Shown here one piece after another: positions 1 through 46,425 of a DNA stretch of 64,000 nucleotides. The notes beneath the pieces were generated by a model. It searched no databases, was not told the DNA's origin, and saw nothing but the letters and a program-made list of their open reading frames with translations. Source of the stretch: an uncultured Eubacteriales bacterium (GTDB lineage Bacteria > Actinomycetota > Coriobacteriia > Anaerosomatales > PHET01); NCBI GenBank assembly GCA_964607705.1, contig CAZSLI010000004.1, positions 15,750 through 79,749 of the forward strand, in the 5' to 3' direction. The stretch's first letter is position 1, and each line of letters begins with the position of its first letter. The translations under genes and the position numbers were made by a program.

Positions 1-1070
1 CCGTGACACGAGAAGCACGCGGCCGCGTACGTGCCTTGCGTCTGGTCGGTCGCGAGCGTGCTCTGCGTCGTGGGCCGGTACTGCGCCACAAGCCCGTCGT
101 AGGCACTCGGTCCGCGATGCGCCGCATGACAATTCAGGCAGTCGCCCTTCGTCCGCCCTGCTGCCGAGGACGCCGGCAGTGAGCCGTGCGGGTTGGAGTC
201 AGCAAGGTACGCCGCCTCACCGGGGAAGGTGCCGAGCACGGGATAGCCCGCCGAGTTGGTCTTGGGCGCAGCCACGTCGGGATAGGGCGTCGCGCTCGTC
301 CAGCCGGACGGCTTCGCATGGCAGCTGAGACACCACGCGGTGTTTCCGCCGGCAGTGGTCCGACCCTGGATCACCGGCTGGGGGTTGCGCGGGTTCTTGG
401 CCGGGTCCAAGTGGGGGCTGTGGCAGCTGGCGCACGAGGCCGTGGTGTTGGCGGCATCGCCGGTCTCCTCGATCGAGTGACCGCTCGTCAGGGCGAAGGA
501 GTCATCGGCGCCATCGAACACGTCGTACTTGGACCCGACACCCGAGTGGCACGAGAAGCAGACGCCCGAGTCGCCCGAGGGCACGGACGCGGGCCGCGCG
601 AGCGTGCCGTCGACAGCAGCCACGTGAGTCGAATGACACTGGGCGCAGGTACGCGATCCCTCGTTGGCGGTGCCGTGGGGCGAGAGCGTGTCACGGGCAA
701 CGATGGGGCCCGCAGGGTCCGACAGCGCCGACTGTCCCTGGCCGGTGACCGCGCTTACGCGGTAGTAGTAGCTCTGCCCCTCCGAGGAGAACGTGTCCTC
801 GTAGAGCTGCTGGTCGGTCGAACCGATCAGGTAGGCACGTCCGTCAGGCATGGCTGCACGCCACACGCGGTACTCGGTGCCGTCGCTATCGGCCGTGCCC
901 GGCTCCCAGCTAACGACCGCGACCGTCGCCGTCGTATCGCCGGGCCGCGCTGTCACGTTCACGGGCACGTCGGCGCCCAGACCTGCGCGCGCCTGAGCGA
1001 CCGCAAAGGCCGCCCCGCCGACCAGCAGAAGTGCCCCGAGCATCATGGCGAGGGCGAAACGGTTCTGCAC
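1..1070 (-). CDS. Secreted multiheme cytochrome c with N-terminal fibronectin type III domain (3' end truncated by window edge)
   Basis: Manual minus-strand translation from GTG at 1070 is open to the edge: signal-like MQNRFALAMMLGALLLVGGAAFAVAQARA, FN3-like segment (VVSWEP...EYRVWR...YYYRVSAV), then CAQCH (633-647), CFSCH (546-560), CASCH (420-434), CLSCH (318-332), CLNCH (126-140), CFSCH (3-17). Not in the ORF track because it has no stop in the window. Confidence 0.9.
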   Translation of the reverse strand, partial: MQNRFALAMMLGALLLVGGAAFAVAQARAGLGADVPVNVTARPGDTTATVAVVSWEPGTADSDGTEYRVWRAAMPDGRAYLIGSTDQQLYEDTFSSEGQSYYYRVSAVTGQGQSALSDPAGPIVARDTLSPHGTANEGSRTCAQCHSTHVAAVDGTLARPASVPSGDSGVCFSCHSGVGSKYDVFDGADDSFALTSGHSIEETGDAANTTASCASCHSPHLDPAKNPRNPQPVIQGRTTAGGNTAWCLSCHAKPSGWTSATPYPDVAAPKTNSAGYPVLGTFPGEAAYLADSNPHGSLPASSAAGRTKGDCLNCHAAHRGPSAYDGLVAQYRPTTQSTLATDQTQGTYAAACFSCH

Positions 1071-1319
1071 GGTGACGACTGACGGTGGCAACGACGTCGA
1101 GCGGACGGACTCTATGAGGATCCCGATAGCGCGGGAGACTTGGTTTCGCGTGTTCACGATACGCGCGTTAGTGCAGGAGGCATGCCATGGCGGCCACATG
1201 AGAAGACCCACACAATTCGTCCACACCGCAACAATCTGAGGACAGGGGTCCAACGGCCCGCCGTACCGGTGGGGTATGAACGCAATGAGTCCGCCCGACA
1301 TCCGAAAGGGGCTTTCGTC

Positions 1320-2111
1320 ATGCCGCTTCCCCAGGTGGGCGAACAGGCCCCTTCACTCTCTCTGCCGAGCCATCTCGGAGACATCGTCAGCCTTGATGAA
1401 CTGCGCGGAAAGAACATCGTGATCGCGTTCTTCCCTCTCGCATTCACTCCCGTTTGAACCAACCAGATCCCCTCGTACGAGCAGGCGCTCAGCCGCTTCG
1501 AGGGGATGAACACCCAGGTCATGGGTGTGAGCGTTGACCATGTGCCGGCGCTGATGGCGTGGGCGGAGTCCTTGGGGGGCATCAGCTTCCCGCTGCTTTC
1601 GGATTTCTGGCCGCATGGAGCTGCCGCTGAGGCGTGGGGCGTGTTCCGGCATGAGGACGGCCACTCAGAGCGAGCGTTGTTCATCCTGGATGCAGAAGGC
1701 ATCGTTCGGTACGTGGACGTCCACGACATCGCCGACCAGCCCGATAACGAGACGCTCTTCGCCGAGCTGGCCAAGCTGGAACCCGAGTCGGCCGGCCGCC
1801 TCCTCGCTGCAGAGTCGTCCCCCCAGACCGGATCCGATGCACCCGTGTCCCCCGACCGACAGGAGACCTTGTCCGACGGGGTGCTGATGTACTGCCGCTC
1901 ATGGTGTCCCGACTGTCGGCGCGCCCGCGACTGGCTCGACCGCGAGGGCATCTCCTACGTCGAGATAGATGTTGATCAGGACGCCGTGGCGCGTGAAAGG
2001 GCCGCCTCTCACAACGAAGGCCGACTCCACACACCGACCTTCGAGATCGGCGAAGAGGTGTGCGTCGATTTCCAGCCACAACGCATCAGGCAGCTCCTCG
2101 ACATGATGTGA
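1320..2111 (+). CDS. Selenocysteine-containing AhpE-type peroxiredoxin fused to a glutaredoxin domain (Sec at codon 46)
   Basis: ORFs 1140-1457 and 1506-2111 are in one frame, separated only by TGA 1455-1457, which falls at the peroxidatic Cys position (FFPLAFTPV-U-TNQ; later SDFWPHG, SERALFILD). C-terminal Grx domain with WCPDC. Confidence 0.88.
1469..1505 (+). promoter_or_regulatory. Putative bacterial SECIS element
   Basis: CCCCTCG (1469-1475) pairs with CGAGGGG (1499-1505); apical GAGC-AGGC-GCTC hairpin; stem starts 11 nt after the UGA; loop GG at +27/+28. Confidence 0.75.
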
Positions 2112-10260: not shown

Positions 10261-10288
10261 CGCGACCGCCCCTGATCGGCCTTCCCGC

Positions 10289-10903
10289 TTAGGCGACCTC
10301 GGCCATGCTCGTGATCGTGCACCCTGCGCTCGCCATGGCCTGAAGCGCCCTTTCACCGTCTCCCCTGACGGCGTCGACCGCTCGCACCCCATCAGCCACC
10401 ACTGCCACCTCGAACCCCAGGCTGCGCGCATCGAGCGCCGAGTACTTCACGCAGTAGTCGGTGGCCAGCCCCACGATGACCACTCCCTGCACGCCGCGGT
10501 CGGCGAGTATCGCGGAGAGTCCCGTGTCGCAACGCCTGGCGTTGTCGAAGAAAGCCGAGTACGAATCCACTAGGGGATCGGTGCCCTTGCGGATCACCGC
10601 ATCTATGTGTGCGACGTCGAGGGCAGAGTGGAATGAGGCACCCGGCATGTTCTGGACGCAGTGATCGGGCCACAAGACCTGTTCGGTCCCCGCCAGGTCG
10701 ATCGTTTGCCCGGGCTGTCTGCCCATGTGGTTGCTCGCGAAGCTGCCATGATCGGACGGGTGCCAGTCCTGCGTCGCGACCACGAACTCAAAATCGGGCG
10801 CGAGGTGGTTGGCGACTGCCACCGCCGCTTCGCCATCGCGTACGGGCAGCGAGCCGAACGGCATGAAGTCGTTCTGAAGATCGATCAGCAGCAGTGCGCG
10901 CAT
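10289..10903 (-). CDS. pncA: Nicotinamidase/pyrazinamidase
   Basis: LLLIDLQNDF, TQDWHP, WPDHCVQ, KG...DSYSAF, GLATDYCV. Confidence 0.93.
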   Translation of the reverse strand: MRALLLIDLQNDFMPFGSLPVRDGEAAVAVANHLAPDFEFVVATQDWHPSDHGSFASNHMGRQPGQTIDLAGTEQVLWPDHCVQNMPGASFHSALDVAHIDAVIRKGTDPLVDSYSAFFDNARRCDTGLSAILADRGVQGVVIVGLATDYCVKYSALDARSLGFEVAVVADGVRAVDAVRGDGERALQAMASAGCTITSMAEVA

Positions 10904-23485: not shown

Positions 23486-23758
23486 CTCGCTCATCGCGCC
23501 GAGCGACCGCCGACGACGATGTCGCTCCCACGTGCCGTCGCTCTCTATGTGACACGCGCGCGAAAAGGAGTGAGCGCAGAGCGCGAGGAGCCGTGGATGC
23601 GACGCGTCCGCTGATGCCTCCGCCTGCATACCGGGGCGGGCGGCAACACGCGGACCGTTCGTGCGCGCTTCGAGCAGGATTCAGGCGGTCGGTCGTCGTA
23701 TCTCCCCCGTATCGGAAAGGTTCCGATGGGGCCGCTAAGCGGGGGGATCGAGACCGGC

Positions 23759-24115
23759 ATGGACACGGCGATCCTGGTATTCACGGGCTTTCTCTTGGTC
23801 GGCGGGCTACTCGGGGTCATCCTCGTGTCGCTGCCCCGCTGGATGGCGCCGCGCCACCGAAGCGAGCTGAAGTCCAGCGCATACGAATGCGGCGAGCTTC
23901 CCATCGGTGAGCCCTGGATCCGCTTCCGTGTCGCCTACTACGTCTTCGCGCTCGCCTTCGTCGTGTTCGACGTCGAGGCGGTCTTTCTCTACCCGTGGGC
24001 GGTGATCATCCGGCGTCTCGGGATTCCCGGGCTGATCGAGATGGCCGTCTTCGTCGGCATCCTGGTTCTCGGCCTCGCGTATGCGTGGCGCAAGGGGGTG
24101 CTCAAGTGGACGTAG
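23759..24115 (+). CDS. nuoA: NADH-quinone oxidoreductase subunit A
   Basis: YECGE, YYVFALAFVVFDVEAVFLYPW, WRKGVLKW; alternative start at 23726. Confidence 0.95.
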   Translation: MDTAILVFTGFLLVGGLLGVILVSLPRWMAPRHRSELKSSAYECGELPIGEPWIRFRVAYYVFALAFVVFDVEAVFLYPWAVIIRRLGIPGLIEMAVFVGILVLGLAYAWRKGVLKWT

Positions 24116-24603
24116 AGGACAAGAGCGGCATTCTCGTCGCTCCTCTCCAACAGGTCATGAACTGGGCCCGCGGTCACTCCATGTGGCCGCTGACATTCGG
24201 CACGGCCTGCTGCGCCATCGAGATGATGAGCTGCGGCTCCCCCCGTTACGACACAGACCGCTTCGGCATCTTCTTCAGGAACTCTCCGCGCCAGGCAGAC
24301 TGCATGATCGTGGCTGGCACCATCAACCTGAAGATGGTGCCTCGGATGAAGCTGCTCTACGAGCAGATGGCGGAGCCCAAGTACGTCATCGCCATGGGCT
24401 CGTGCGCGATCGGCGGAGGACCATTCTCGTTCGGCTACAACGTCGTCAACGGTGTGGACCAAGTCATCCCGATCGACATCTACGTGCCGGGATGCCCGCC
24501 TCGGCCAGAAGCGCTCATCCACGCGCTGCTAACGCTCATGGAGAGGAACGCTGCCGGCGAACCATCGGCTGCCGAGCGTTTCGCGCAGGAGGCTGCACTG
24601 TGA
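24106..24603 (+). CDS. nuoB: NADH-quinone oxidoreductase subunit B
   Basis: FGTACCAIEMM, SPRQAD, MGSCAIGGG, YVPGCPPRPEAL. Confidence 0.95.
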   Translation: MDVEDKSGILVAPLQQVMNWARGHSMWPLTFGTACCAIEMMSCGSPRYDTDRFGIFFRNSPRQADCMIVAGTINLKMVPRMKLLYEQMAEPKYVIAMGSCAIGGGPFSFGYNVVNGVDQVIPIDIYVPGCPPRPEALIHALLTLMERNAAGEPSAAERFAQEAAL

Positions 24604-26309
24604 CGCACGCAGCCCCGACCTCCGCCCTGGCCGTAGGCGCGCTCGAGGACGTTTCCGCCACCGAGCGCGGATGCGTGACCCCAGGCGGCATGCCATACGC
24701 CGTGGTGACAGCAGAGGAGTTGCCGAGTAGCGCGCGAGCCCTTCTCGACCATGGGTTCGGCCATCTGGCTCTCGTCACCGCCGTCGAACGCGTTCCTCTC
24801 GCCGAGGAGGCTGGCTCCGATTCAACGGCATCGTCGGTGGACGAGCCGGGACTCGACCTCATCTACGTGCTGACCCGAAGGTCCGACTCGGCCCGCGTGA
24901 TGCTCCGGGTGCGGCTCGTCGACTCCGACCTCGCGGTGCCGTCACTCACGCCGCTCTGGTCCGGCGCCCACGCCCTGGAGCGCGAGGTCTACGACCTCTT
25001 CGGCGTCATGTTCGTCGGTCACCCTGACCTCAAGCGGATCGTGCTGCGCGACGACTTCGAAGGCCACCCACTGCGCAAGTCGTTCGCCATGGGCGAGCAC
25101 GGAGTGACCGCCGAGCAGGTCGCCGAAGCCGTGAAGGACCATGGGGACAAGAACAACCGGCCCGCGGAGCACTCTCCTCTCATCGAGGGGCGGCTACCGG
25201 GCGATCCCCTCCTGCACTCAGAGCGGCTCATCCTCAACGTCGGCCCGCAACACCCGAGCACCCACGGCGTCTTGCACGTCTGGCTGGCGCTCGACGGCGA
25301 GAACGTGGTCGCTTCGGAGCCGACGCACGGCTACCTTCACCGCTGCATCGAGAAGCTCGCGGAATCTCGCAACTACCGAGCGAACATCGCACTGCTCGAC
25401 CGGTGTGACTACGTGTCCGGTTTCCACACGGAGCTCGCCTACATGCTGGCGCTCGAAGAGCTCGCCGGCGTCGAGAGCACTCCCAAGGCCGACTTCATAC
25501 GCGTCCTCATGAGCGAGCTGGTCCGCATCACCAGCCACCACACGTGGCTAGCTGCCTGCGGCCTGGACACCGGCGCCCTCACGCCCTTCCTCTACGCGTT
25601 CATCGACCGCGAGAAGATCCTCGACTTCTTCGAGATCGTCACCGGCGGTCGTATGATGTTCAACTACTTCCGTCCGGGCGGAGTGAAGGACGATCTGCCG
25701 CCTGGTGCTGCCGAGGACCTTCGTCGCTATCTGTTGACCTTCGAGAAGCAGGTGGACGAGTACGAGTCACTCCTTACCGCCAACGAGATCTTCCGCTACC
25801 GCGTCCGCGGCGTAGGCGTCCTCCCCCCGTCGACGATCGAGAGTTACGGGGTGACAGGTCCACTCGCGCGGGCATCCGGTGTCGACATCGACCTGCGTCG
25901 CGATGACCCGTACTCGGCGTACGACCGGTTCAAGGTGAACGTCCCTATCGCTCAGGCTGGTGACACCTTCGACCGCTACGTCGTGCGTATCGCGGAGATG
26001 CGCGAGTCCGCGCGCCTCGCCCTCGCCTGCCTGGACGGCATGCCCGAGGGCCCGTATCTCAATCCCGACGTACCAAGGATCTTGCGACCACCGGTCGGCG
26101 AGGCCTACCGCGAGGTCGAGAGCCCCCGGGGAGAGCTCGGCGTCTATCTGGCGAGCGACGGATCGGCCCAGCCGTGGCGGCTGAAGGTCCGCTCGCCTGC
26201 TCTATCGAATCTGCATGTTGCGCCCGAGATGCTGCGCGGCACCAAACTCGGCGACGTCGTCGCGGTCCTCGGCTCGGTGGACGTGGTCATGGGAGAGATC
26301 GACCGGTGA
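24600..26309 (+). CDS. nuoCD: Fused NADH-quinone oxidoreductase subunit C/D
   Basis: EREVYDLFG, GHPLRK, GPQHPSTHGVL, GYLHRCIEK, DVVMGEIDR; no Ni-binding CxxC pairs. Confidence 0.95.
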   Translation: MTHAAPTSALAVGALEDVSATERGCVTPGGMPYAVVTAEELPSSARALLDHGFGHLALVTAVERVPLAEEAGSDSTASSVDEPGLDLIYVLTRRSDSARVMLRVRLVDSDLAVPSLTPLWSGAHALEREVYDLFGVMFVGHPDLKRIVLRDDFEGHPLRKSFAMGEHGVTAEQVAEAVKDHGDKNNRPAEHSPLIEGRLPGDPLLHSERLILNVGPQHPSTHGVLHVWLALDGENVVASEPTHGYLHRCIEKLAESRNYRANIALLDRCDYVSGFHTELAYMLALEELAGVESTPKADFIRVLMSELVRITSHHTWLAACGLDTGALTPFLYAFIDREKILDFFEIVTGGRMMFNYFRPGGVKDDLPPGAAEDLRRYLLTFEKQVDEYESLLTANEIFRYRVRGVGVLPPSTIESYGVTGPLARASGVDIDLRRDDPYSAYDRFKVNVPIAQAGDTFDRYVVRIAEMRESARLALACLDGMPEGPYLNPDVPRILRPPVGEAYREVESPRGELGVYLASDGSAQPWRLKVRSPALSNLHVAPEMLRGTKLGDVVAVLGSVDVVMGEIDR

Positions 26310-27433
26310 GCGTACTGAAGATACTCATCGGCATCGTCGCGATCGTGTTGGTCGTTCTCATCAACACGATCATCGTCATGTGGTGCGAGCGTAAGTGGCT
26401 CGGTCACATGCAGTCCCGTCAGGGGCCCCTCCGCACGGGCTGGCATGGAGTCATCCAGCCGTTCGCCGATGCGATCAAGCTCCTCGGCAAGGAAGACCTT
26501 GTGCCGAACGGCTCCGATCGCGTGCTGTTCCTCGTCGCACCGCTCATCGCGTTCACGCCGTCCATCCTCGTCTACGCAGCCACCCCATGGGTCGAGTCGT
26601 TCACCGGCTCGTCCTCGGACACGGGCATCTTCATGGTCTTCGCCATCGCGGCGCTCTTCCCGGTGGGGATCCTCGTGGCCGGGTGGGCCTCCCACAACAA
26701 GTACGCGCTCTTCGGCGGCTTCAGGGCGGCTTCTCAGCAGATCAGCTATGAAGTCCCGATGCTCCTCGCGCTGATGGGCGTGGTCATGTTGGCCGGCTCG
26801 ATGAACATGGGCCGGATCGTTGACGCCCAGGCGACGTGGTGGAACGTCGTCACCCAGCCATTCGCATTCCTACTCTTCTTCATCGGGATGCTTGCGGAAC
26901 TCAACCGCACGCCGTTCGACATGCCCGAGGCAGAATCGGAGTTGGTGGCCGGCTTCAACGTCGAGTACTCGTCGATGCGTTTCGCACTCTTCTTCGTCGC
27001 CGAGTACGTGAACGTGTTCACGTGGGCCCTCTTCACCACCGTGCTGTTCCTGGGCGGGTGGAACGGGCCGCTGTTGCCGGACTGGGCGTGGCTGTTCCTC
27101 AAGACCTATCTCGTCGTGTTCCTGATCATCTGGGTGCGGGCCACCTTCCCGCGCGTGCGGGTCGACCAGCTCATGGCACTCGGGTGGAAGGTGCTTCTGC
27201 CGGCGGCGCTGATCAACCTACTGCTGACCGCCTTCGGAGTCGTGACCAACGTGGCCGTGCTCGTGGTGCTCGAGTTCGCCGCCGCAGCGGCGTTCGTCGC
27301 AGTCATCGCCTATCTGGGTCGCCACGCGGGCGACAAGGAACGGACGACGGCGAAGGAGTCGCACGCCACGCATCATGCGCGCGCCAAAGATGCCGTGCTC
27401 ATCGCCGCCGAGTCCGAGGGGGCGGTCGTGTGA
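26306..27433 (+). CDS. nuoH: NADH-quinone oxidoreductase subunit H
   Basis: ERK, QPFADAIKLLGKE, QQISYE, ELNRTPFDMPEAESELV, RATFPR. Confidence 0.95.
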   Translation: MSVLKILIGIVAIVLVVLINTIIVMWCERKWLGHMQSRQGPLRTGWHGVIQPFADAIKLLGKEDLVPNGSDRVLFLVAPLIAFTPSILVYAATPWVESFTGSSSDTGIFMVFAIAALFPVGILVAGWASHNKYALFGGFRAASQQISYEVPMLLALMGVVMLAGSMNMGRIVDAQATWWNVVTQPFAFLLFFIGMLAELNRTPFDMPEAESELVAGFNVEYSSMRFALFFVAEYVNVFTWALFTTVLFLGGWNGPLLPDWAWLFLKTYLVVFLIIWVRATFPRVRVDQLMALGWKVLLPAALINLLLTAFGVVTNVAVLVVLEFAAAAAFVAVIAYLGRHAGDKERTTAKESHATHHARAKDAVLIAAESEGAVV

Positions 27434-27882
27434 TCGGCATGGCGAAGGGGATGTTGACCACCCTCAAGCACGCCTTCCGGCCGGCGTTCACGACGCGCTA
27501 TCCCTGGGGGCCCGTTACCCTCCCCGAACGCAGTCGGACGTCGTTCGCTCTCCCACTCGGCGAAGACGGTCTCCCGCTGTGCAAGGCATGCAACCTCTGC
27601 GCGAAGAGCTGTCCTGATGCAGCGATCGTGCTCGAATCGGAGAAGCGCGCCGACGGACCGGGCCGGGTGCTCACGTCGTTCAAGATCGATCTCGGCCTGT
27701 GCATGTACTGCGGCATCTGCGTCGAGAACTGCCCGTCCTCGGGACTTCATCACACCGGTGACTTCGAGACTGCCACGCACCTGAGGGATGACACGATGCT
27801 CGTGTTGTTCGAGGCCCCGGGCGCGACTGCCCCCGCCGAGGACTCGGCCGGCAAGGCACCCGTCGCAGAGGAGGCGTCATGA
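27430..27882 (+). CDS. nuoI: NADH-quinone oxidoreductase subunit I
   Basis: CKACNLCAKSCP and CMYCGICVENCP. Confidence 0.95.
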   Translation: MIGMAKGMLTTLKHAFRPAFTTRYPWGPVTLPERSRTSFALPLGEDGLPLCKACNLCAKSCPDAAIVLESEKRADGPGRVLTSFKIDLGLCMYCGICVENCPSSGLHHTGDFETATHLRDDTMLVLFEAPGATAPAEDSAGKAPVAEEAS

Positions 27883-28385
27883 CGCTCACGGGCGTGCTCT
27901 TCTACGTCTATGCGGCGGTAGCCCTCGCCGGCGCTGTGGGCCTCGTCATGGCGCCCAAGCTCATCCACGCCGTCATGTGCATGTTCGCGACGATGTTCTC
28001 CATCGCCGCCCTCTACCTGCTACTGGGCAGCGAGTTTCTCGCAGCCATGCAGCTCTTCGTCTACGGCGGCGCGATCACCGTGCTCGTCCTGTTCGTGCTG
28101 ATGCTCACGCGACCGACCGAAGGCGCCGAGTCGGCCCCACCGGTCAGGTGGTTCGCCGCAGCCCTGTGCCTCGTGTTCTTCGGCGTGCTCGCCACGACCT
28201 TGGGCCGCGCCGAGTGGCAGGTCGCCGCAAGCCACGCGCACGACGCGGCCTCTCTCGGCGAGATCCTCTTCTCTCGCTACGCCCTCCCCTTCGAGATAGC
28301 CGGCCTCGCGCTCACTATCGCGCTCATCGGCGCCATAGTGCTCGCTCGTGAGGACGACATGGCGGAGGAGGTGGCCGAGTCATGA
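27879..28385 (+). CDS. nuoJ: NADH-quinone oxidoreductase subunit J
   Basis: QLFVYGGAITVLVLFVLML, PFEIAG. Confidence 0.93.
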   Translation: MTLTGVLFYVYAAVALAGAVGLVMAPKLIHAVMCMFATMFSIAALYLLLGSEFLAAMQLFVYGGAITVLVLFVLMLTRPTEGAESAPPVRWFAAALCLVFFGVLATTLGRAEWQVAASHAHDAASLGEILFSRYALPFEIAGLALTIALIGAIVLAREDDMAEEVAES

Positions 28386-28690
28386 TCGGCCTCAACCACT
28401 ACCTCGTGCTGGCCGCGGCGCTCTTCTGCATCGGTCTGTACGGTGCGCTCACGTCGAAGAGCGCACTGCGCGTGGTCATCTGCGTCGAGCTCGTGCTGAA
28501 CGCCGTGAACCTGAATCTGGCGGCCTTCTCGGTGTATATCGCTCCGCGTGAAGCGGTCGGCATGAACTTCGTCATCTTCCTGATGGTGGTAGCAGCGGCC
28601 GAGGTCGGCCTGGCACTGGCGCTCATCATCACGCTCAACCGATCGAGCGACATCAGTCGCATCGACAGCATCAGCAGGTTGAGGGGATAG
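28382..28690 (+). CDS. nuoK: NADH-quinone oxidoreductase subunit K
   Basis: ICVELVLNAVNLN, VAAAEVGLALA. Confidence 0.95.
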   Translation: MIGLNHYLVLAAALFCIGLYGALTSKSALRVVICVELVLNAVNLNLAAFSVYIAPREAVGMNFVIFLMVVAAAEVGLALALIITLNRSSDISRIDSISRLRG

Positions 28691-28692
28691 CG

Positions 28693-30618
28693 ATGAACCT
28701 GATGCACTACAGCTGGACGCTTCCCCTCGTTCCTCTGGCTGTCTTCGTCTTCGTGGTGGCGACCGGCCGCAAGTCGCCGAGGATGGTGGCGCCGGTCCTC
28801 GGCATCGCTGCCCAGGCGGTGGTCTTCGCGGCCTCGGTCGGGATGCTCGTCGCGACGAGCGCCGGAGCGACCTACGAAGCGTCAACGACGTGGCTGCGGG
28901 TCGGCGAGAAGACGATCGAGTTCGGCGTGCTCATCGACCCGCTCTCCGCCACGATGATCGCCATCGTCTCGTTCGTGAGCATGCTCGTGCAGCTGTACTC
29001 CATCGGCTACATGTCGGAGGAGGAGCGCTTCCGCTGGTTCTACGGTGCCATCTCCCTGTTCACGGCGGCGATGCTCGGAGTGGTCATCTCCAACGGCTGG
29101 CTGCTGATGTACATGAGCTGGGAGGTCATGGGCCTCGCGAGCTACCTCTTGATCGGCTTCTGGTACGAGGACCCCAACGCTCCCCCCGCGTCTATGAAGG
29201 CGTTCTTGGTCACGCGCTTCGGCGACGTGGGATTCGGGCTCGCACTCGTCCTCATGTGGCTCACGGTGGGCTCGTTCACCTTCAGCGTCGTGTTCGAGGC
29301 CGTCGAGTCGGGTGCATGGGTCGGTGCGTCGCTCGCCGCTTGTGCACTGCTCTTGTTCGCGGGCGCCATGGGCAAGAGCGCCCAGTTCCCGCTCCACGTC
29401 TGGCTACCGGACGCCATGGCCGGTCCGACGCCCGGCTCGGCGCTCATCCATGCAGCCACCATGGTGGCCGCCGGCGTCTACCTCGTAGCGCGCTCGTTCC
29501 CGCTCTACGAGGCCGCCGAGTGGACACTCGGCGTCGTGGGGACCGTGGGGACGATCACCGCGGTCATGGGGGCACTCATCGCGCTCTCGATGCATGACAT
29601 CAAGAAGGTTCTCGCGTACTCCACCATCTCGCAGTTGGGCTACATGTTCCTCGCGTTGGGCACGGGCAACTGGGTCGCGGCCGTGTTCCATCTGATGACG
29701 CACGCCTTCTTCAAGGCGCTGCTCTTCCTCGCGGCCGGGTCTGTGATCCATGCCACGCACACTCAGGACCTCCACGAACTCGGGGGCCTGTGGCGCAAGA
29801 TGCCGTGGACGACGGCGACCTGGTGTCTCGGGGCCCTTTCGCTGGCCGGCATTCCCCCGCTCGCGGGCTTCTGGAGCAAGGACGAGATTCTCCTTTCCGC
29901 ATTCAACAACGGGGACTGGGGCTTCTTGATCGCCGGTCTGGCGACGGCCGCGCTCACCGCCTTCTACATGGCGCGCGCGACCTTCCTGACATTCTTCGTC
30001 AAGCCGGGGCCACAGAGCCAAAGCGAACATGCACACGAAGCGCCCTGGGTCATGACGGTCCCGCTGGCTGTACTTGCTGGACTCGCGGTGACCGTCGGAC
30101 TCGTGGGTTCGCCGGCCACCGGGTATGCGTTCGGCGGGTTCCTCGGCGAGCATGAGGCCGCGGACCCGAACCTGATCCTCGCGGGTGTCGCTGTGGGCGT
30201 CGCCGTCGCCGGCATCCTGCTCGCTTGGTCGAGTTACATCAGACGCCTGTTCGAACCGGACGGCTACTTCCGCACGCGGCTCGTCTCAAAGGTCTTCGAG
30301 CGCAAGTTCTGGATGGACGAGATATATAGCCTGTTCGTCGTCGACCCCACCAAGGCCATTTCCGAGTTCGCGCGCAAGGTCGACCACACTGTGATCGACG
30401 GAGTTGTCCGAGGGCTCGGCTGGGTGGGCCTCAACGTCAGTGCGATGCTGGCATGGATCGACCGTGAGGCGGTCGATGGCACGCTGGTCGATGGCCTCGG
30501 GGAGACGGTCGCCGAGTCAGGCGAGATCGTTCGGCAGGTGCACTCAGGCAACGTCCAGACCTACCTGCTCCTCCTGGTCGTCGGCATCGTGGTCCTCGCG
30601 GTGGTGTTCGCCCGATGA
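28693..30618 (+). CDS. nuoL: NADH-quinone oxidoreductase subunit L with extended lateral helix
   Basis: WEVMG, GKSAQFPLHVWLPDAMAGPTP, HAATMV, THAFFKALLF, GFWSKDEI. Confidence 0.95.
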   Translation: MNLMHYSWTLPLVPLAVFVFVVATGRKSPRMVAPVLGIAAQAVVFAASVGMLVATSAGATYEASTTWLRVGEKTIEFGVLIDPLSATMIAIVSFVSMLVQLYSIGYMSEEERFRWFYGAISLFTAAMLGVVISNGWLLMYMSWEVMGLASYLLIGFWYEDPNAPPASMKAFLVTRFGDVGFGLALVLMWLTVGSFTFSVVFEAVESGAWVGASLAACALLLFAGAMGKSAQFPLHVWLPDAMAGPTPGSALIHAATMVAAGVYLVARSFPLYEAAEWTLGVVGTVGTITAVMGALIALSMHDIKKVLAYSTISQLGYMFLALGTGNWVAAVFHLMTHAFFKALLFLAAGSVIHATHTQDLHELGGLWRKMPWTTATWCLGALSLAGIPPLAGFWSKDEILLSAFNNGDWGFLIAGLATAALTAFYMARATFLTFFVKPGPQSQSEHAHEAPWVMTVPLAVLAGLAVTVGLVGSPATGYAFGGFLGEHEAADPNLILAGVAVGVAVAGILLAWSSYIRRLFEPDGYFRTRLVSKVFERKFWMDEIYSLFVVDPTKAISEFARKVDHTVIDGVVRGLGWVGLNVSAMLAWIDREAVDGTLVDGLGETVAESGEIVRQVHSGNVQTYLLLLVVGIVVLAVVFAR

Positions 30619-32078
30619 CCACGGTCCCGGTGCTCTCGGTCATCACGCTCACGCCGGTCGTCGCGGCCGTGCTCATCGCCGTGTTCGGCCGCGGCCGGAG
30701 TCCTCGGTACATCGCGCTCGCTGCTGCCTCCATCTGCCTTGGCTCGGCCGTGTGGGTCTACTTCAGCTACGACCGCGTCGCGTCGGGATTCCAGTTCGTC
30801 GAGTCGATGCCGTGGATCCCGTCGCTGGGAGTGGGGTACCTGGTCGGCGTCGACGGCATCTCGGTCCCCATGCTGATGCTGATGGGCCTCGTGATGTTCA
30901 CCGGCGTGCTGGTCAGCTGGGACCTCCAGGAGCGGACGCGCGAGTTCTTCGTGCTGTTGCTGCTGCTCGTAACGGGCGTCTTCGGTGTGTTCGTGTCTCT
31001 CGACGCGTTCCTGTTGTTCTTCTTCTACGAGATGGCCGTTCTTCCGATGTACCTGCTCATCGCGATCTGGGGGTCCACGAAGAAGGACTACTCGGCGATG
31101 AAGCTGACGCTCTTCCTGTTCGCGGGAAGCGCCGCCATCGTGCTCGCCCTCGTGTTCGTCTACTGGCAGGTCGGCGCGAACTCGTTCGACCTGCGTGTCT
31201 GGGCCGCGTACGACTTCCCCGCCGAGTTCCAGCGGTGGGCGTTCCTGGTGCTGTTCCTCGGCTTCGGAGCACTCGTGCCAATCTTCCCGCTCCACACGTG
31301 GTCGCCCGACGGCCACGTCGCGGCGCCCACCGCCGTCTCGATGATGCACGCCGGCGTGCTACTCAAGATCGGCGCGTTCGGCGTGATCCGGTTGGGGATG
31401 TGGCTCTTCCCTCAGGGCATCACCGACTGGGCCTACCTGATCGCGATCGTCGGCTGCATCAACGTCGTCTACGGCGCCCTGTGCGCCATGAACCAGACTG
31501 ACCTCAAATACGTCATCGGCTACTCCTCGGTCAGCCACATGGGTTACGTCCTGCTGGGGCTGGCGATGCTCGACCGCTTCGGCATCGAGGGAGCGGTCTT
31601 TCAGATGTTCGCGCACGGCATCATGACCGCACTGTTCTTCGCGCTCATCGGCTACGTCTACGAAAAGGCGCACACGCGCCAGATCGCCGAGATATCGGGC
31701 CTGATGCGCAAGACGCCTCTGGTCGCCGCAGCGTTCATCATCGCAGCCGCAGCCAGCATGGGTCTGCCGTCGACCAGCGGCTTCGTCGCGGAGCTGTTGG
31801 TGTACATCGGGATGATCCAGCAGGAGCCCATTCTCGCCGTCATCGCGTTCATCGGCGTCGTCGTCACCGCCGCCTACCTCGTCCGGATGCTCGGCAAGAT
31901 CCTGCTGGGCGAGCCGTCCGAGTCGGTCGCCGCGATCTCGGACCCGCGGCCACTACGCCTTGCGCCCATGGGGATGCTGGCCGTGACGATCATGGTCGTC
32001 GGGCTCAACCCGGCCATGCTCTATGGCACCATCCGGGCCGGCGTCATCCCGCTCGTCACCAAGCTGGCGGGGGGCTGA
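30615..32078 (+). CDS. nuoM: NADH-quinone oxidoreductase subunit M, copy 1
   Basis: FFFYEM, PLHTWSPDGHVAAPT, HAGVLLKIG, YSSVSHMG, GFVAE. Confidence 0.92.
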   Translation: MTTVPVLSVITLTPVVAAVLIAVFGRGRSPRYIALAAASICLGSAVWVYFSYDRVASGFQFVESMPWIPSLGVGYLVGVDGISVPMLMLMGLVMFTGVLVSWDLQERTREFFVLLLLLVTGVFGVFVSLDAFLLFFFYEMAVLPMYLLIAIWGSTKKDYSAMKLTLFLFAGSAAIVLALVFVYWQVGANSFDLRVWAAYDFPAEFQRWAFLVLFLGFGALVPIFPLHTWSPDGHVAAPTAVSMMHAGVLLKIGAFGVIRLGMWLFPQGITDWAYLIAIVGCINVVYGALCAMNQTDLKYVIGYSSVSHMGYVLLGLAMLDRFGIEGAVFQMFAHGIMTALFFALIGYVYEKAHTRQIAEISGLMRKTPLVAAAFIIAAAASMGLPSTSGFVAELLVYIGMIQQEPILAVIAFIGVVVTAAYLVRMLGKILLGEPSESVAAISDPRPLRLAPMGMLAVTIMVVGLNPAMLYGTIRAGVIPLVTKLAGG

Positions 32079-32081
32079 TAG

Positions 32082-33551
32082 ATGCCCGAAGCCATGACTT
32101 GGATGCGCTATCTGGCTCCCGAGATGATCGTCGCCCTCACGGGTGTGGTCCTGATCGTCGCCGATCTCATCTGGCCGATGCGCGAGGACTGCCGTCACAG
32201 AGGTCGGCCGTGGATCGCCTACCTCGGGATAGCGGGCCTTGTCGCCGCAGCCGTGGCCACCGTGATGACCGGCGCGCCGTCCGGCGGCGTCGCGCTCTTC
32301 GGCGGCATCATCCTCATCGACCAACTGGCTGTGTTCTTCAAGGTGCTGTTCCTCGGGATCGGGGTCATCGTCCTGCTCATCGCGGTCGACCCCCTCCCCG
32401 TGTTCAGCAAGTGGCCTGCGGAGTTCTACGCACTGGTGGTGTGGTGCACGCTCGGCCACATGCTCCTCTCCTCGGCGGGCGAGCTGTTCACCATCTTCCT
32501 GTGCCTGCAGCTCACCAGCCTGCCTCTGATCGTGCTCATCGGCTACGCCAAGCGTGATGTCCGCAGCGGTGAGGCGTCGCTCAAGTACCTGCTCCTCGTG
32601 CTCGTCTCGACTGCGGTACTGCTCTACGGGATGTCGCTCATCTACGGGGCGCTCGGCACGAGCACCATCTCTGAGATAGGGACGCTGCTGGAGCAGCAGT
32701 CCGAAGTGACCACGGTCGTGGCGCTCGGCCTCGTGCTGCTGCTCACAGGGTTCGCGTTCAAGATCACCGCGTTCCCCTTCCAATACTGGGTGCCCGACGT
32801 GTACCAAGGCGCCCCCACCCCCGTGACCGCCTTCCTGTCGGTGGGCTCCAAGTTCGCAGGATTCGCCCTCGCCCTGCGTATCATCGTCACGGGGCTGCAG
32901 ATCGACCTGAACTGGCATCTCATCTTCGGGGCGCTGGCGGCGCTGTCGATGACGTTCGGCAACCTCGGCGCGATCAAACAGACCAACATCAAGCGCATGC
33001 TCGCCTACTCCGGTATCGCTCAGGCCGGGTATCTGCTCGTCGGGCTGGCGGCGCTCTCTGCTTCGGGCATCGGCGCCCTGCTCTTTTACGCCGTCGCCTA
33101 CACCGCCGCGAACCTGGCGGCGTTCGGCGCGATCATCGTGTTCGCGCAGCAGACCGGTTCCGAGGAGATCGCCGACTACGACGGCCTTGCCCGCCGAGCT
33201 CCCCTCGTCGCCCTCGCGCTGACGGTCGCGCTGCTTTCCTTGGGCGGACTGCCGCTCATGGCAGGCTTCATGGCGAAGTTCTACGTCTTCCTGTACGCCG
33301 CGCTGGCCGGGCTCTTCTGGCTCGTCGCGATCGGCGTGGCGAACGGCGTCATCGCGCTCTACTACTACCTGCGGGTCGTCTGGCACATCTACGTCGCCGA
33401 GGACAAGACCTCGGGCGCCGAGCTCCGTCTCGCACCGCGTGCGGGCATCGCCCTGTCGCTCTGCGTCGTGGGCATCTTCGCGATCGGACTGTTCCCGCAG
33501 CCGTTGTTCGACGCCAGCCAGCGGGCCGCGGCCGCGCTATTCGGCGGCTGA
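32082..33551 (+). CDS. nuoN: NADH-quinone oxidoreductase subunit N
   Basis: GEASLKY, FKITAFPF..WVPDVYQGAPT, KRMLAYSGIA, GFMAKF. Confidence 0.95.
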   Translation: MPEAMTWMRYLAPEMIVALTGVVLIVADLIWPMREDCRHRGRPWIAYLGIAGLVAAAVATVMTGAPSGGVALFGGIILIDQLAVFFKVLFLGIGVIVLLIAVDPLPVFSKWPAEFYALVVWCTLGHMLLSSAGELFTIFLCLQLTSLPLIVLIGYAKRDVRSGEASLKYLLLVLVSTAVLLYGMSLIYGALGTSTISEIGTLLEQQSEVTTVVALGLVLLLTGFAFKITAFPFQYWVPDVYQGAPTPVTAFLSVGSKFAGFALALRIIVTGLQIDLNWHLIFGALAALSMTFGNLGAIKQTNIKRMLAYSGIAQAGYLLVGLAALSASGIGALLFYAVAYTAANLAAFGAIIVFAQQTGSEEIADYDGLARRAPLVALALTVALLSLGGLPLMAGFMAKFYVFLYAALAGLFWLVAIGVANGVIALYYYLRVVWHIYVAEDKTSGAELRLAPRAGIALSLCVVGIFAIGLFPQPLFDASQRAAAALFGG

Positions 33552-33567
33552 GAGGAAGGAGGGCCGC

Positions 33568-35040
33568 ATGACTGACGCAAGCATCCTGTTGCTCACCATC
33601 CTCGTGCCGCTCGTCGGGGCGGTCGTCATCGGCGCACTGCCCATGTCGCTCGAGCGGCTGGCTCGTCCAGCGGCCATCGGAGTATCGGGATTGGTGCTGG
33701 TGGCGTGCGGGCGCCTGTGGATAGCGTTCGACTCGGCGGCCCAAGGCATGCAGTTCGAGTACGTGCGCGACTGGATTCCCGGGCTGGGCACGAGCCTGCA
33801 TCTCGGCGTTGATGGACTCTCGTTGCCGCTGGTGGCACTGACGGCGCTGCTGACGGTTCTGGCTTGCGTGGCGTCCAAGTCGGTGACGGACCAGCGCCGA
33901 CAGTACTTCACTCTGCTATTGCTGCTCGAGGCCGGCCTGATAGGCGTCTTCGTCGCCTTGGACCTCGTGCTCTTCTACGTCTTCTGGGAAGTCGTTCTGA
34001 TCCCGATGTTCTTCCTGATCAGCGTCTGGGGCGGGCCGCGCCGGTCGTACGCGTCGGTCAAGTTCTTCGTGTACACGCTTGCGGGCTCGCTCGCCATGCT
34101 CGGCGGCATCATCACGCTGTATCTCGCGACCGGTGCGACATCGTTCGATCTTATCGGCCTGCAAGCCGCAGCCGGGGGACTCGCCCCCGCACTTCAGCTC
34201 GGGATCTTCCTCGCGATGGCATTCGCGCTCGCGGTCAAGGTTCCCATCGTGCCGTTCCACACCTGGCTTCCCGATGCCCATGTGGAGGCGCCGACAGCCG
34301 TTTCGGTCCTGCTGGCCGGCGTTCTGCTCAAGATGGGCTCGTACGGGTTCATCCGGCTTGGCCCGCAGCTCCTGCCCGAAGGATTCAAGGCAGTCTCCCC
34401 TGTGCTGGCGGTGCTCGCGGTCGTCTCGATCGTCTACGGCGCCGCTGTCGCACTACGGCAGACCGACCTCAAGAAGCTCGTCGCCTACTCCTCGGTATCG
34501 CACATGGGCTACGTCATGCTCGGAATAGCGGCCGGCACTACCGCCGGCATCCTGGGAGCCGGTGTGCAGATGGTGTCTCACGGGCTGATCGCCGGCATGG
34601 CGTTCCTGCTTGTCGGGGCGCTCTACGAGCGCGCACATACGCGGGAGATGCAGGCCTTCGGCGGCATCGTGAAGGTCGCGCCTGTCCTCGGCGGCATGCT
34701 GGTCCTGATGGCGTTCGCCTCGCTCGGGCTTCCCGGCATGAGCGGCTTCATAGGCGAGTTCATGATCGTCACGGGGTCATTCTCAGCGTATCAGTGGATC
34801 TCGGTCATCGCTGCCACGGCCGTGGTGCTGACCGCCGCCTACCTGCTTTGGATGTTGCGCCGCGTGGTGTTCGGCCGACTCAACGAGGAGCGGCTCGAGA
34901 TGCCCGACATGACCGCCACCGAGGCGTGGGCGATCATGCCGCTCGCGGCCGCGACCTTGATCATCGGCATCTTCCCGCAGACGCTTGCGGGTGTCATGCA
35001 GGCGAGCGTGCAGGCGGTCGTCACGGCTCTGGGCGGCTAA
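33568..35040 (+). CDS. nuoM: NADH-quinone oxidoreductase subunit M, copy 2
   Basis: FYVFWE, AVKVPIVPFHTWLPDAHVEAPT, GVLLKMG, GFIGE; own AGGAAGGAGG RBS. Confidence 0.93.
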   Translation: MTDASILLLTILVPLVGAVVIGALPMSLERLARPAAIGVSGLVLVACGRLWIAFDSAAQGMQFEYVRDWIPGLGTSLHLGVDGLSLPLVALTALLTVLACVASKSVTDQRRQYFTLLLLLEAGLIGVFVALDLVLFYVFWEVVLIPMFFLISVWGGPRRSYASVKFFVYTLAGSLAMLGGIITLYLATGATSFDLIGLQAAAGGLAPALQLGIFLAMAFALAVKVPIVPFHTWLPDAHVEAPTAVSVLLAGVLLKMGSYGFIRLGPQLLPEGFKAVSPVLAVLAVVSIVYGAAVALRQTDLKKLVAYSSVSHMGYVMLGIAAGTTAGILGAGVQMVSHGLIAGMAFLLVGALYERAHTREMQAFGGIVKVAPVLGGMLVLMAFASLGLPGMSGFIGEFMIVTGSFSAYQWISVIAATAVVLTAAYLLWMLRRVVFGRLNEERLEMPDMTATEAWAIMPLAAATLIIGIFPQTLAGVMQASVQAVVTALGG

Positions 35041-35085: not shown

Positions 35086-35955
35086 CTAGTGGGTCGCGAG
35101 CGCAGTCTCGAACTCGGTCGCCAACTCACTCTCGGACTGTGCACCCACCCACCGCTTGATCTCCTTGCCTGATGCGTCGACCAGCATCATGGTGGGCACC
35201 GCCGATACCCCTTGCTTGTTGGCGAACGCGGCTGCAGCCTTGTCCTTGTCAGTCTCCGGGTAGAGCTTGAAGGTCATGCGCCCCGCGTACTCCTGCGTGA
35301 GCCTGTCGACCACAGGCTTCATCTCGATGCAGGCCGGTCAAGTGGAGGTGCCGAAGTAGTAGAACGTCACCTGCCCGCTGGTCGAAGGCGGCCATGCCGA
35401 GGAGGTGGACCCGCCTCGCATACCAGAGAGCATGCCTACGCTCATCGCGCCACTGACGACCGTGACCACTACGCCTGCGATGAGCATCTGTCGAGCCGCC
35501 GCACGATTGGCATCTCGCACGATCAGCCAGCCGATGATGCCGCCGACTATTCCGAGCATGAACGGTAGCCACCACACCCACTTCGAGTAGCGGCCACCCG
35601 AAGGTTCGACATCGAGCAAAGACTTGCCTGCGGGTGCCTGCATCACCTGGTCGACCGGGCTGACGCCGGCACGCGCCCGGCCGGGCTCGGTGAAGGGTGG
35701 GGCGCCGGGGCTCTGAGGGGGTGTCCCAGGGGGAATCGGGCCCGCGACCGCAGCCTGATTCGGGGACTCGACCCAGGTCATCCGTTCGCCATCGAAGCTC
35801 AACGGCACTTCGGAGGAGTGGATCTGGACGTAGCGAGCGAGCGCCTCGGCGGCTTCCTCACGATCGAGGCCGGCCATCATCTCGGGCGTCACGTATCCTC
35901 GCAAGCTCAGCGTCTGCGAGATGTGCGCGTCGATCGCTTGCGTGTAGTCGGCCAT
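35086..35955 (-). CDS. Membrane-anchored selenocysteine thioredoxin (UxxC motif)
   Basis: ORFs 35338-35955 and 35086-35322 are in frame across TGA 35338-35340, giving FYYFGTST-U-PAC-IEMKP; the Trx fold continues with GVSAVPTMMLVD..G..W.G; two TM helices upstream. Confidence 0.88.
35292..35333 (-). promoter_or_regulatory. Putative bacterial SECIS element
   Basis: AGCCTGT-GGTCG-ACAGGCT perfect 7-bp stem, lower stem CCTGC/GCAGG; loop GG at +27/+28 from the UGA. Confidence 0.78.
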
Positions 35956-45387: not shown

Positions 45388-46425
45388 CTACCGAGCCAGC
45401 CAGAACGCCGCCCCTACCACGATCCCGTTGTAAAGGGCGTGGAGCGCGATCGCGGGCCACAAGCTCCGACGCGATACCGCCAGCCAACCCAGTGCGCAGC
45501 CAAGGGCGAACATAGGCATGAAAGACCAGGGCGTCAGGTGGTAGAAACCGAAGAGCGCTGCCGAGACCACGATCGCTGCCCTGCGTCCCCACAGGCCCCT
45601 CGCAGCACCGGCGATCACACCCCTGAAGGCGAGTTCCTCGGCGAAGGGGCCGAGGGTCACCGCCATGAGCACCGCGAGCGAAAGTCCGGCGCTCCCGCTG
45701 CCGAAGACCTCGACCAGCGAGTCGGCCCCACTCGTCGGAGGCGCCCAGCCGATAGCCTGCGCCACCGCTCCCCACGCGGTGGACACCACCCTGGTGAGGA
45801 CGAGCAGGCCCACCACGAGCGCCGCGTCCGTCGCGACGCCGATCATCCCCCGCGGATCACGTTCGGCGGGGCGCAATCGGAAGGCCTCCGCGAACCGGAA
45901 TCCTCGGCGACGCGCAAGGAAGCCGAGGACCGCAAGCTGAGCGGAGTAGAAGACCAGCAGCACCACGCCGCGGACGACGACGTGGCTGGAGTCCGGCATG
46001 ACCTGCACGGGAGCGCTCTCGAGCACCGCCTGCTTCGCGAGAAGTGCCAGCAGCAGCACGAAGCCGACCACAGCACCGTCCATGGCGGACCATTGCGCGC
46101 CGCCCGTGGCGTCTGCGGCTCGAGACTCCCCACGAGCCTTGGCTGAAGCGGCCGCCTTGGCTGACGCGCGCAGCGCCTTGGCCTCGGCACGAGACCCGAC
46201 CAGCACTTTCGGGCCGTCAGCGTCCAAGACTCCTCCGCGGGGACCCGTCGCCTTCAGAATCGCCCCGCGACCGCATGCGGCGACGCACTCGAAGCAGCTG
46301 TCGCATTCGGCGGCATCCACGTGCACGTACCCGCCGCCGACGCGTACGAGCCCCCTGGAGCAGGCAGCGATGCACTTGCCGCAGCGGTCGCATCGCTCCG
46401 GCCGCAGGGCCAGGTGAGACGTCAT
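45388..46425 (-). CDS. 2x[4Fe-4S] ferredoxin domain fused to CPBP (CAAX type II) intramembrane metalloprotease
   Basis: CDRCGKCIAAC and CDSCFECVAAC, then FAEELAFRG, LFGFYH, HALYN. Confidence 0.85.
   Translation of the reverse strand: MTSHLALRPERCDRCGKCIAACSRGLVRVGGGYVHVDAAECDSCFECVAACGRGAILKATGPRGGVLDADGPKVLVGSRAEAKALRASAKAAASAKARGESRAADATGGAQWSAMDGAVVGFVLLLALLAKQAVLESAPVQVMPDSSHVVVRGVVLLVFYSAQLAVLGFLARRRGFRFAEAFRLRPAERDPRGMIGVATDAALVVGLLVLTRVVSTAWGAVAQAIGWAPPTSGADSLVEVFGSGSAGLSLAVLMAVTLGPFAEELAFRGVIAGAARGLWGRRAAIVVSAALFGFYHLTPWSFMPMFALGCALGWLAVSRRSLWPAIALHALYNGIVVGAAFWLAR

Follow-up and report, generated by a model that had tools for sequence, protein, structure and literature searches.

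Does the TGA codon that interrupts a minus-strand reading frame in a 64,000-nucleotide stretch of DNA from an uncultured bacterium of the Coriobacteriia (contig CAZSLI010000004.1, positions 15,750 to 79,749; hereafter the window, at its full length) end a short membrane protein, or does it specify selenocysteine (Sec) at the active site of a longer one? The first-pass annotation, made from the letters alone, had proposed a hidden membrane-anchored selenoprotein of the thioredoxin fold with a U-P-A-C motif. This reading is supported by the conservation of the TGA in related loci, by coding conservation on both sides of it and by a covarying hairpin on its 3' side, and it gains further from a confidently matched thioredoxin fold and from the existence of a cysteine form in a paralog. 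The evidence supports a real but routinely mis-annotated gene for a putative membrane-anchored thioredoxin-like enzyme, whose reactive cysteine would be replaced by Sec. As a whole, we consider a Sec-decoded, membrane-tethered oxidoreductase of the thioredoxin fold a highly probable explanation of the locus, and its parts are held with different degrees of confidence below.

The complete selenoprotein gene would occupy positions 35086..35955 of the minus strand, from an ATG at 35955..35953 to a TAG stop at 35088..35086, with 289 sense codons including the UGA-Sec codon. Translation of 35955..35086 yields a single frame with codon 206 (TGA, 35340..35338) as the sole internal stop; its surroundings read VTFYYFGTST-[TGA]-PACIEMKPVVDRL. 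Aligned homologs start with MAEYT or MADYT at the same position as the window ATG, a Shine-Dalgarno-like run (GAAGGGG) lies 5 nucleotides 5' of this ATG, and the G+C content of third codon positions in the gene frame is 0.78 before the TGA and 0.86 after it. With cysteine put at the TGA, Pfam matches residues 193-281 both to Thioredoxin_2 (PF13098; 1.8e-9, 38.3 bits against a cutoff of 27) and to Thioredoxin (PF00085; 8.6e-8, 32.6 bits against a cutoff of 23.5), so that the thioredoxin domain crosses the TGA. In a sequence search of solved thioredoxins the codon aligns with the first, nucleophilic cysteine of WCGPC. Translation, domain matches and alignment thus agree with the earlier claim that an in-frame TGA stands where the first cysteine of a CxxC motif belongs. 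Public gene calls on near-identical contigs split the frame into fragments of 205 and 78 residues, the very division that had been foreseen for standard annotation.

A protein search returned six relatives; five terminate right at FGTS[TN], and the sixth, P0004, extends over the full length. On the contigs that encode these five, TGA occupies the same codon in 5/5 cases and the frame runs on through the conserved thioredoxin domain, as far as the contig reaches. A scan of one genome per GTDB species added 18 further loci, all from metagenome-assembled genomes (MAGs) of uncultured Coriobacteriia or Actinomycetota. The 25 homologous DNA sequences obtained in this way (the window and 24 related loci) range from near-identical down to 33% identity by tblastn, and TGA stands at the position of codon 206 in 23 of them, that is, in the window and in 22 of the 24 loci. 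In the TGA-bearing homologs the reading frame stays open, and the protein is conserved before as well as after the codon; homologs that seem to end there do so only in automatic calls, and their DNA continues in frame. The two sequences without TGA have TCA (Ser; L003/P0004) and TGC (Cys; L024), the latter being a paralog with the motif CSHC and the sole cysteine form seen.

A search of 1.84 billion representatives with a profile built on the N-terminal 202 positions yielded 948 hits at E<=0.001, 42 of them at E<=1e-30, and most of the 948 cover the linker/hairpin part of the profile alone. Endings were surveyed in 153 sequences, drawn from the best 150 of the 948 hits and the six relatives of the protein search. 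At least 36 representatives of 50%-identity clusters in this set end no more than 4 residues after YYFG, which indicates that gene callers stop at the TGA. Only six of the 153 read past the motif: P0004, where it is S-Q-S-C (SxxC), and P0017, P0036, P0044, P0045 and P0050, each with a recognizable thioredoxin-fold domain whose motif contains neither Cys nor Sec. A cysteine-containing homolog, proposed earlier as a check, does exist in the CSHC paralog, but the closest full-length relatives have serine or no redox residue at this place. Since the TCA of P0004 differs from TGA by a single substitution and the hairpin described below is largely retained, the state of P0004 suggests a loss of Sec and not an ancestral condition. 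The window gene is the founding member of a sizeable unnamed family in uncultured Coriobacteriia-like actinobacteria.

The RNA on the 3' side of the UGA provides the second line of evidence. A hairpin resembling a selenocysteine insertion sequence (SECIS) is found at 35300..35318 of the minus strand, within the codons for K-P-V-V-D-R-L; it consists of a 7-bp stem (AGCCUGU/ACAGGCU) and an apical loop GGUCG, the stem starting 19 nucleotides and the loop 26 nucleotides 3' of the UGA. It had been described as strong. The hairpin is indeed present, but it is not significant from the window sequence alone, where single-sequence folding of its 76-nucleotide GC-rich context gave z = 0.52 relative to shuffles; it is by comparison that it becomes so. 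In a gap-free alignment of 21 Sec-type sequences, which covers 63 nucleotides from the TGA, all 147 cells of the 7-bp stem are paired, and two of its pairs covary (U-A to C-G in 8 sequences, G-C to A-U in 1). None of 500 shuffles matched the observed covariation or pairing, and in slid controls pairing drops to 15-43%. At the main covarying pair the codons are traded together, Pro-CCU occurring with Arg-AGG (13/13) and Pro-CCC with Gly-GGG (8/8); across 16 window genes, AGG accounts for just 7% of the codons for Arg, and CCT for just 10% of those for Pro. The peptide motif C-x-E-M-K-P-V-V-D is retained also in the cysteine form at L024, where the hairpin is degraded, and the serine form at L003 has one mismatch in the stem, which together argue that the stem-loop is selected as RNA and in TGA-bearing sequences only. 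Both the GGUC(G) loop and its distance from the UGA would fit bacterial SECIS elements such as that of E. coli fdhF. We regard the hairpin as a candidate SECIS of the bacterial type, maintained by coordinated codon choice.

The predicted domain layout (N-terminal domain, Pro-rich linker, two transmembrane helices, thioredoxin domain) was confirmed in AlphaFold2 models of two homologs, the N-terminal fragment P0001, which is 99% identical to the window protein, and the full-length serine form P0004 (31 aligned sequences; mean predicted local distance difference test, pLDDT, 88.4). All features that follow lie on the minus strand. Residues 1-62 (35770..35955) form a small acidic domain composed of a helix, a short strand, a helix and a beta-hairpin, with pLDDT values of 83-92 in the P0001 model and 94-97 in the P0004 model. 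Its top Foldseek matches in the PDB are all winged-helix proteins (BrxR 7qfz, PF0095 2qlz and F-112 2vqc), at weak E values of 0.06-0.6, and it matches no Pfam family; we refer to it as winged-helix-like. A disordered linker rich in Pro, Ala and Gly follows (residues 63-125, 35581..35769), with pLDDT below 50 over residues 66-123 of the P0001 model. It contains a conserved SPVDQV...LLD motif, and S99, P100, V101 and L114 do not vary across the family alignment. Hydrophobic helix 1 (residues 126-146, WVWWLPFMLGIVGGIIGWLIV; 35518..35580; helix 125-147 in AlphaFold2), with the invariant residues W128, P131, G138, G139 and W143, is joined by the short basic loop RDANRAAARQ (residues 147-156, 35488..35517) to hydrophobic helix 2 (residues 157-179, 35419..35487; helix 151-180 in AlphaFold2).

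The C-terminal residues 196-289 (35089..35370) make up a minimal thioredoxin-fold domain of the order beta-alpha-beta-alpha-beta-beta-alpha. Block pLDDT values in the P0004 model are 94-98 over residues 171-270, falling to 86 for the last two residues, and Foldseek superimposes the domain on solved thioredoxins with E ~1e-6 and a root-mean-square deviation of 1.2-1.9 A over ~92 residues. The active-site geometry can be read from this homologue model, in which the tetrad corresponding to U206-P-A-C209 (35329..35340; UGA of Sec206 at 35340..35338, resolving Cys209 at 35331..35329) precedes helix alpha-1 of the fold. The sequence V253-P254-T255 (35191..35199) is invariant in the family alignment and stands at the position of the thioredoxin cis-Pro loop; from the alignment to solved thioredoxins and the established knowledge of this fold we take it to be the equivalent of that loop, presumably in the cis conformation.

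On this basis we propose that the gene would be expressed as one protein of 289 residues, in which the UGA at codon 206 would be decoded as Sec under the direction of the hairpin located 19 nucleotides downstream inside the coding sequence. This product is predicted to be a thiol-disulfide (selenylsulfide) oxidoreductase tethered to the membrane. Sec206, located where helix alpha-1 starts, would act as the attacking nucleophile and Cys209 as the resolving residue, with the V-P-T loop completing the active site; the two hydrophobic helices would anchor the protein in the cytoplasmic membrane, with the small winged-helix-like domain in front of them. The substrates would presumably be exported thiols, disulfides or sulfur species.

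Whether the thioredoxin domain is exposed on the outer face of the membrane is a question on which the window protein by itself says little. The basic loop between the helices had been taken as a sign of an outward orientation, and in the window protein this sign is ambiguous, the lysines and arginines (K+R) numbering 3 in the loop and 2 and 1 in the flanks. Over 98 family members the picture is clearer, with mean K+R counts of 3.57 per 10 residues in the loop, 1.93 per 15 residues before helix 1 and 0.61 per 15 residues after helix 2. In relatives that share the two-helix module, helix 2 is followed by PKD domains (P0119, 5e-22; P0134; P0116) or by tails rich in Thr, Ser and Pro. Paralogous Sec-thioredoxin domains of the related MAGs, moreover, are found behind lipoprotein signal peptides (L017 AALTGC, L020 GLTGC, L011 AMIGC) and, in other cases, behind an N-terminal signal anchor and a rhodanese domain. 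Because of the family charge statistics, the PKD fusions, the Thr/Ser/Pro-rich tails and these exported paralogs, we think that the thioredoxin domain probably faces outward. The first-pass annotation had considered such an orientation unusual. Exported selenoproteins are, however, not unusual per se, periplasmic formate dehydrogenase and [NiFeSe] hydrogenase being examples. Selenoprotein families of the DsbA-like and TlpA-like types are also on record (PMC13188914).

The same selenoprotein could also be arranged with both the thioredoxin domain and the N-terminal domain in the cytoplasm (an N-in/C-in hairpin) and be reduced by the ordinary thioredoxin reductase system. We consider this unlikely, though it is the most serious of the alternatives. 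An even number of membrane helices puts the N-terminal and thioredoxin domains on the same side, and the winged-helix-like domain, which is acidic and belongs to a 125-residue N-terminal tail without a signal peptide, looks cytoplasmic; with the thioredoxin domain outside, this whole tail would have to be translocated. The Cys-rich, zinc-ribbon-like N-terminal domain of the PKD-bearing relatives also looks cytoplasmic, and no even number of membrane passes can accommodate both a zinc ribbon at the N-terminus and PKD at the C-terminus of the same relatives. In these respects the outward topology is not fully self-consistent. A cytoplasmic location would further agree with the charges of the window protein, which decide nothing, and with its closest sequence and structure matches, solved thioredoxins that are mostly ordinary soluble proteins. 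It does not account for the concentration of positive charge in the loop across the family, for the domains and tails that follow helix 2 in relatives, or for the paralogous U-containing thioredoxin domains placed behind lipoprotein signals and signal anchors.

The two-helix module itself (W-x-W-x-L-P...G-x-x-G-G...W...R-D-x-N...) occurs in several hundred proteins with differing ends (P0053-P0153; examples are P0116, P0119, P0124, P0134 and P0139). Its N-terminal partners are winged-helix-like or Cys-rich and zinc-ribbon-like, and on the C-terminal side stand PKD repeats, unknown domains, Thr/Pro tails or nothing.

Less likely still is a role mainly in redox sensing or as an anchor that transduces signals, instead of bulk oxidoreduction, which would loosely resemble the action of membrane-tethered regulators with periplasmic thiol switches. 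The Sec-thioredoxin domain would then report the redox or sulfur state outside the cytoplasm, to be relayed to a partner by the winged-helix-like domain. The joining of the N-terminal domain and helical hairpin to various C-terminal domains, or to none, would suit such a role. So would the five full-length relatives that keep a thioredoxin fold stripped of redox residues, as a binding or sensing scaffold might, and the fold class of the N-terminal domain is typical of regulators. Yet this domain has a net charge of about -6 (counted from the translation), which is unfavorable for DNA binding, its winged-helix match is weak (E >= 0.06), and no regulatory neighbor is conserved. The two membrane helices, in addition, put both domains on the same side.

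We return to the Sec-decoded oxidoreductase, against which several absences weigh in addition to the folding score and the topological inconsistency given above. ARAGORN detected no tRNA-Sec in the window or in 19 loci, and no tRNA of any type in the window; selA, selB and selD are not among the ~60 Pfam-annotated reading frames of the window, and a motif scan of 370 kb of related loci revealed no SelD, SelA or SelB signatures. No Rfam family matched the hairpin, neither at gathering thresholds in the whole window nor at E<=10 within 35240..35400, but bacterial SECIS elements are poorly covered in Rfam, so that this absence carries no information. Among the 153 surveyed sequences there is no CxxC form with the window-type architecture, and the classical Sec/Cys ortholog pair is thus missing within this architecture. 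Finally, the neighborhood of the gene is not conserved, so that no partner can be inferred from context, and no reductant or partner of the CcdA, DsbD or ResBC type is encoded near it. A role in cytochrome c maturation, one of those suggested in the first-pass annotation, is a conjecture.

The host genome nonetheless presumably decodes Sec. Indirect support comes from a second gene of the window with a TGA at a catalytic cysteine: the plus-strand gene at 1320..2111 encodes an AhpC/TSA peroxiredoxin with a C-terminal glutaredoxin (CPDC), and its TGA at 1455..1457 takes the position of the peroxidatic cysteine (FFPLAFTPV-U-TNQ). Gene callers would retain just the part of this gene that follows the TGA. 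A comparable case occurs at ~8100-8873 of L024, where a peroxiredoxin with TGA at the peroxidatic cysteine (FFPLAFTPV*T, TGA 8235) is combined with the CSHC thioredoxin domain. Elsewhere in the window TGA serves as an ordinary stop, for example at 46422..46424, which shows that the code has not been reassigned. Sec decoding is known in some Actinobacteria (PMC5322559). As to further TGA genes, composition filters missed even the two known cases of the window, and neighboring open reading frames (ORFs) in the same frame, considered as other TGA-interrupted genes, turned out to be separate genes ending in TAG or TAA.

We infer that the UGA is read as Sec and not as another residue. That it is read through as a standard amino acid, by near-cognate Trp, Cys or Arg insertion or after a lineage-wide reassignment, seems very improbable. 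That no Sec machinery was detected leaves room for this, as does the base after the UGA, which is C in 20 of the 21 aligned sequences; in bacteria, termination at UGA-C is leaky. Against it stand the normal use of TGA as a stop at 46422..46424, which speaks against reassignment, the placement of the codon at the catalytic cysteine of CxxC with a covarying stem-loop and a GGUC-type loop at SECIS distance, and the second window gene with TGA at a peroxidatic cysteine, which is a signature of Sec. Hardly credible, finally, is a true stop or disabling mutation that would leave a 205-residue membrane protein and a 78-residue ORF (35322..35086), or a pseudogene: it matches the gene-caller output and the lack of visible Sec machinery in the window, but not the retention of the TGA, with purifying selection on both sides, in 23 of 25 sequences that reach down to 33% identity by tblastn, nor the covarying hairpin 3' of it. 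The 78-residue ORF has neither strand beta-1 nor the active-site residue and therefore cannot form the fold that Pfam and AlphaFold2 detect across the TGA.

How does the predicted protein compare with known ones? Thioredoxin-fold selenoproteins with a UxxC motif are a known kind, and a recent review lists thioredoxin, glutaredoxin, DsbA-like, TlpA-like, SaoT and other families (PMC13188914). Among the closest is Sec-thioredoxin (PF00085, UxxC), with which the window protein has in common the thioredoxin fold, Sec in place of the N-terminal nucleophilic cysteine and an in-frame hairpin of the bacterial SECIS type. It differs from the aligned thioredoxins in its motif (U-P-A-C instead of CGPC or CHPC), in lacking the N-terminal beta-alpha extension and in its fusion to a winged-helix-like domain and two membrane helices. 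In a scan of curated families (NCBIfam release 20) it reached no family cutoff: scores for the canonical TrxA equivalogs were 33.5 bits against 96.8 (TIGR01068) and 23.8 against 140 (NF047697), and those for the thioredoxin-like selenoprotein families TUGYCR (NF053656) and PDO_seleno_TRX (TIGR02187) were 18.1 against 100 and 15.7 against 185, respectively. SaoT (NF040730) was not among its NCBIfam matches.

With reductases of the ResA/TlpA/CcmG type the window protein would share the general idea of a thioredoxin-fold domain at the outer face of the membrane, and its host makes multiheme c-type cytochromes, which depend on a reductant of this kind. It has no match to ResA or TlpA in NCBIfam at E<=0.01 (including NF002854), and the Pfam Redoxin match stays at E = 0.11 (12.7 bits against 26.6); its thioredoxin domain, at ~95 residues, is free of TlpA-type insertions, and it has a two-helix anchor and an N-terminal domain instead of a single N-terminal anchor. 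The paralogs fused to an exported rhodanese domain match the C-terminal thioredoxin part of TsoB (NF045694; 42.5 bits against a cutoff of 805). They differ from TsoB in that Sec lies in the thioredoxin motif and the rhodanese loop keeps CATGARS, and the window protein has no rhodanese at all. The product of the 1320..2111 gene resembles PrxU (NF040737) in having Sec at the peroxidatic cysteine of the AhpC/TSA domain, but scores only 54.8 bits against a cutoff of 270 and carries the C-terminal glutaredoxin fusion. The window protein would thus work like a Sec-thioredoxin, yet it falls outside every named family, and our literature search found no paper describing this architecture. What is new is that a minimal U-P-A-C thioredoxin domain is combined with a winged-helix-like domain and a two-helix anchor, and that CxxC forms are absent from this architecture.

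The consequences are in the first place practical. Like the window gene, those of at least 36 clusters are annotated in two pieces, as a "hypothetical membrane protein" and as a small "thioredoxin-like" ORF, and as a result the active site is invisible in databases. This bears on the selenoproteomes of actinobacteria, as few selenoprotein families have, to our knowledge, been described for the Actinomycetota. The text of a 2026 review of prokaryotic selenoproteins makes no mention of this phylum (PMC13188914). The hairpin, which lies within the stretch that encodes a conserved helix of the thioredoxin domain, is a clean example of simultaneous selection at the protein and RNA levels. If the thioredoxin domain does face outward, an anaerobe with multiheme cytochromes would possess an extracytoplasmic Sec oxidoreductase anchored in its membrane. 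The topology of the N-terminal domain and the two-helix module is a separate question that concerns several hundred proteins.

A broader proposal, which we put forward tentatively and hold to be rather doubtful, is that one Sec-thioredoxin module has been placed on several anchors (a lipoprotein signal, a signal anchor with rhodanese, or a winged-helix-like domain with two helices) to constitute, in uncultured Coriobacteriia-like actinobacteria, an extracytoplasmic thiol/sulfur redox system in which Sec is obligatory. The window architecture is never CxxC, only Sec or non-CxxC, and on this proposal that would mean that the chemistry requires Sec. The system could, as one possibility, handle polysulfide, selenium or metal species; alternatively, it could do without a dedicated reductant of the CcdA/DsbD type. 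The N-terminal winged-helix-like domain may then connect these reactions with a partner, either across the membrane or at it.

In the window, gatB precedes the gene on the minus strand, and the gene is convergent with the last gene of a nuo operon. These two neighbors are common only to the near-identical contigs L006 and L025; at L008 and L009 the neighbors are a cyclic nucleoside monophosphate (cNMP)-binding gene and a DUF4126 gene, and those of the paralogs are unrelated. The nuo operon (23615..35040, plus strand) comprises nuoA, a fused nuoC/D, nuoH, nuoJ, nuoK, nuoL and three Proton_antipo_M genes; between nuoD and nuoH no nuoE, nuoF or nuoG was seen, which resembles complexes that make no direct use of NADH. 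At the other end, a partial gene for a multiheme c-type cytochrome with paired CXXCH motifs and MtrC/MtrF-like matches (1..1352, minus strand) adjoins the selenoperoxiredoxin gene. From the presence of this gene it follows that the organism needs an extracytoplasmic thiol reductant for heme attachment.

The paralogous selenoprotein loci L012-L019 and L021-L023, with match regions at ~10000-10330 (L012 8463-8777; L016 689-946), share a general layout in which a signal anchor or a lipoprotein signal at the N-terminus is followed by a rhodanese with a CATGARS loop and a Sec-thioredoxin domain with MYEFYTD[SW]-U-P[AST]C. They carry the same SECIS hairpin and reach no NCBIfam family cutoff. At L011 and L020 the Sec-thioredoxin domain comes directly after the lipoprotein signal. 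L010 was set aside as a candidate lipoprotein, as its contig is cut at the N-terminus and its hydrophobic segment may correspond to helix 2 in an ortholog. Ten loci (L012-L014, L016-L018 and L020-L023) have as a conserved neighbor a gene for tRNA-Ala(UGC), 0.5-7 kb downstream of that for the U-containing thioredoxin; eight of these are rhodanese fusions, and L012 and L020 are not, L020 having a lipoprotein signal.

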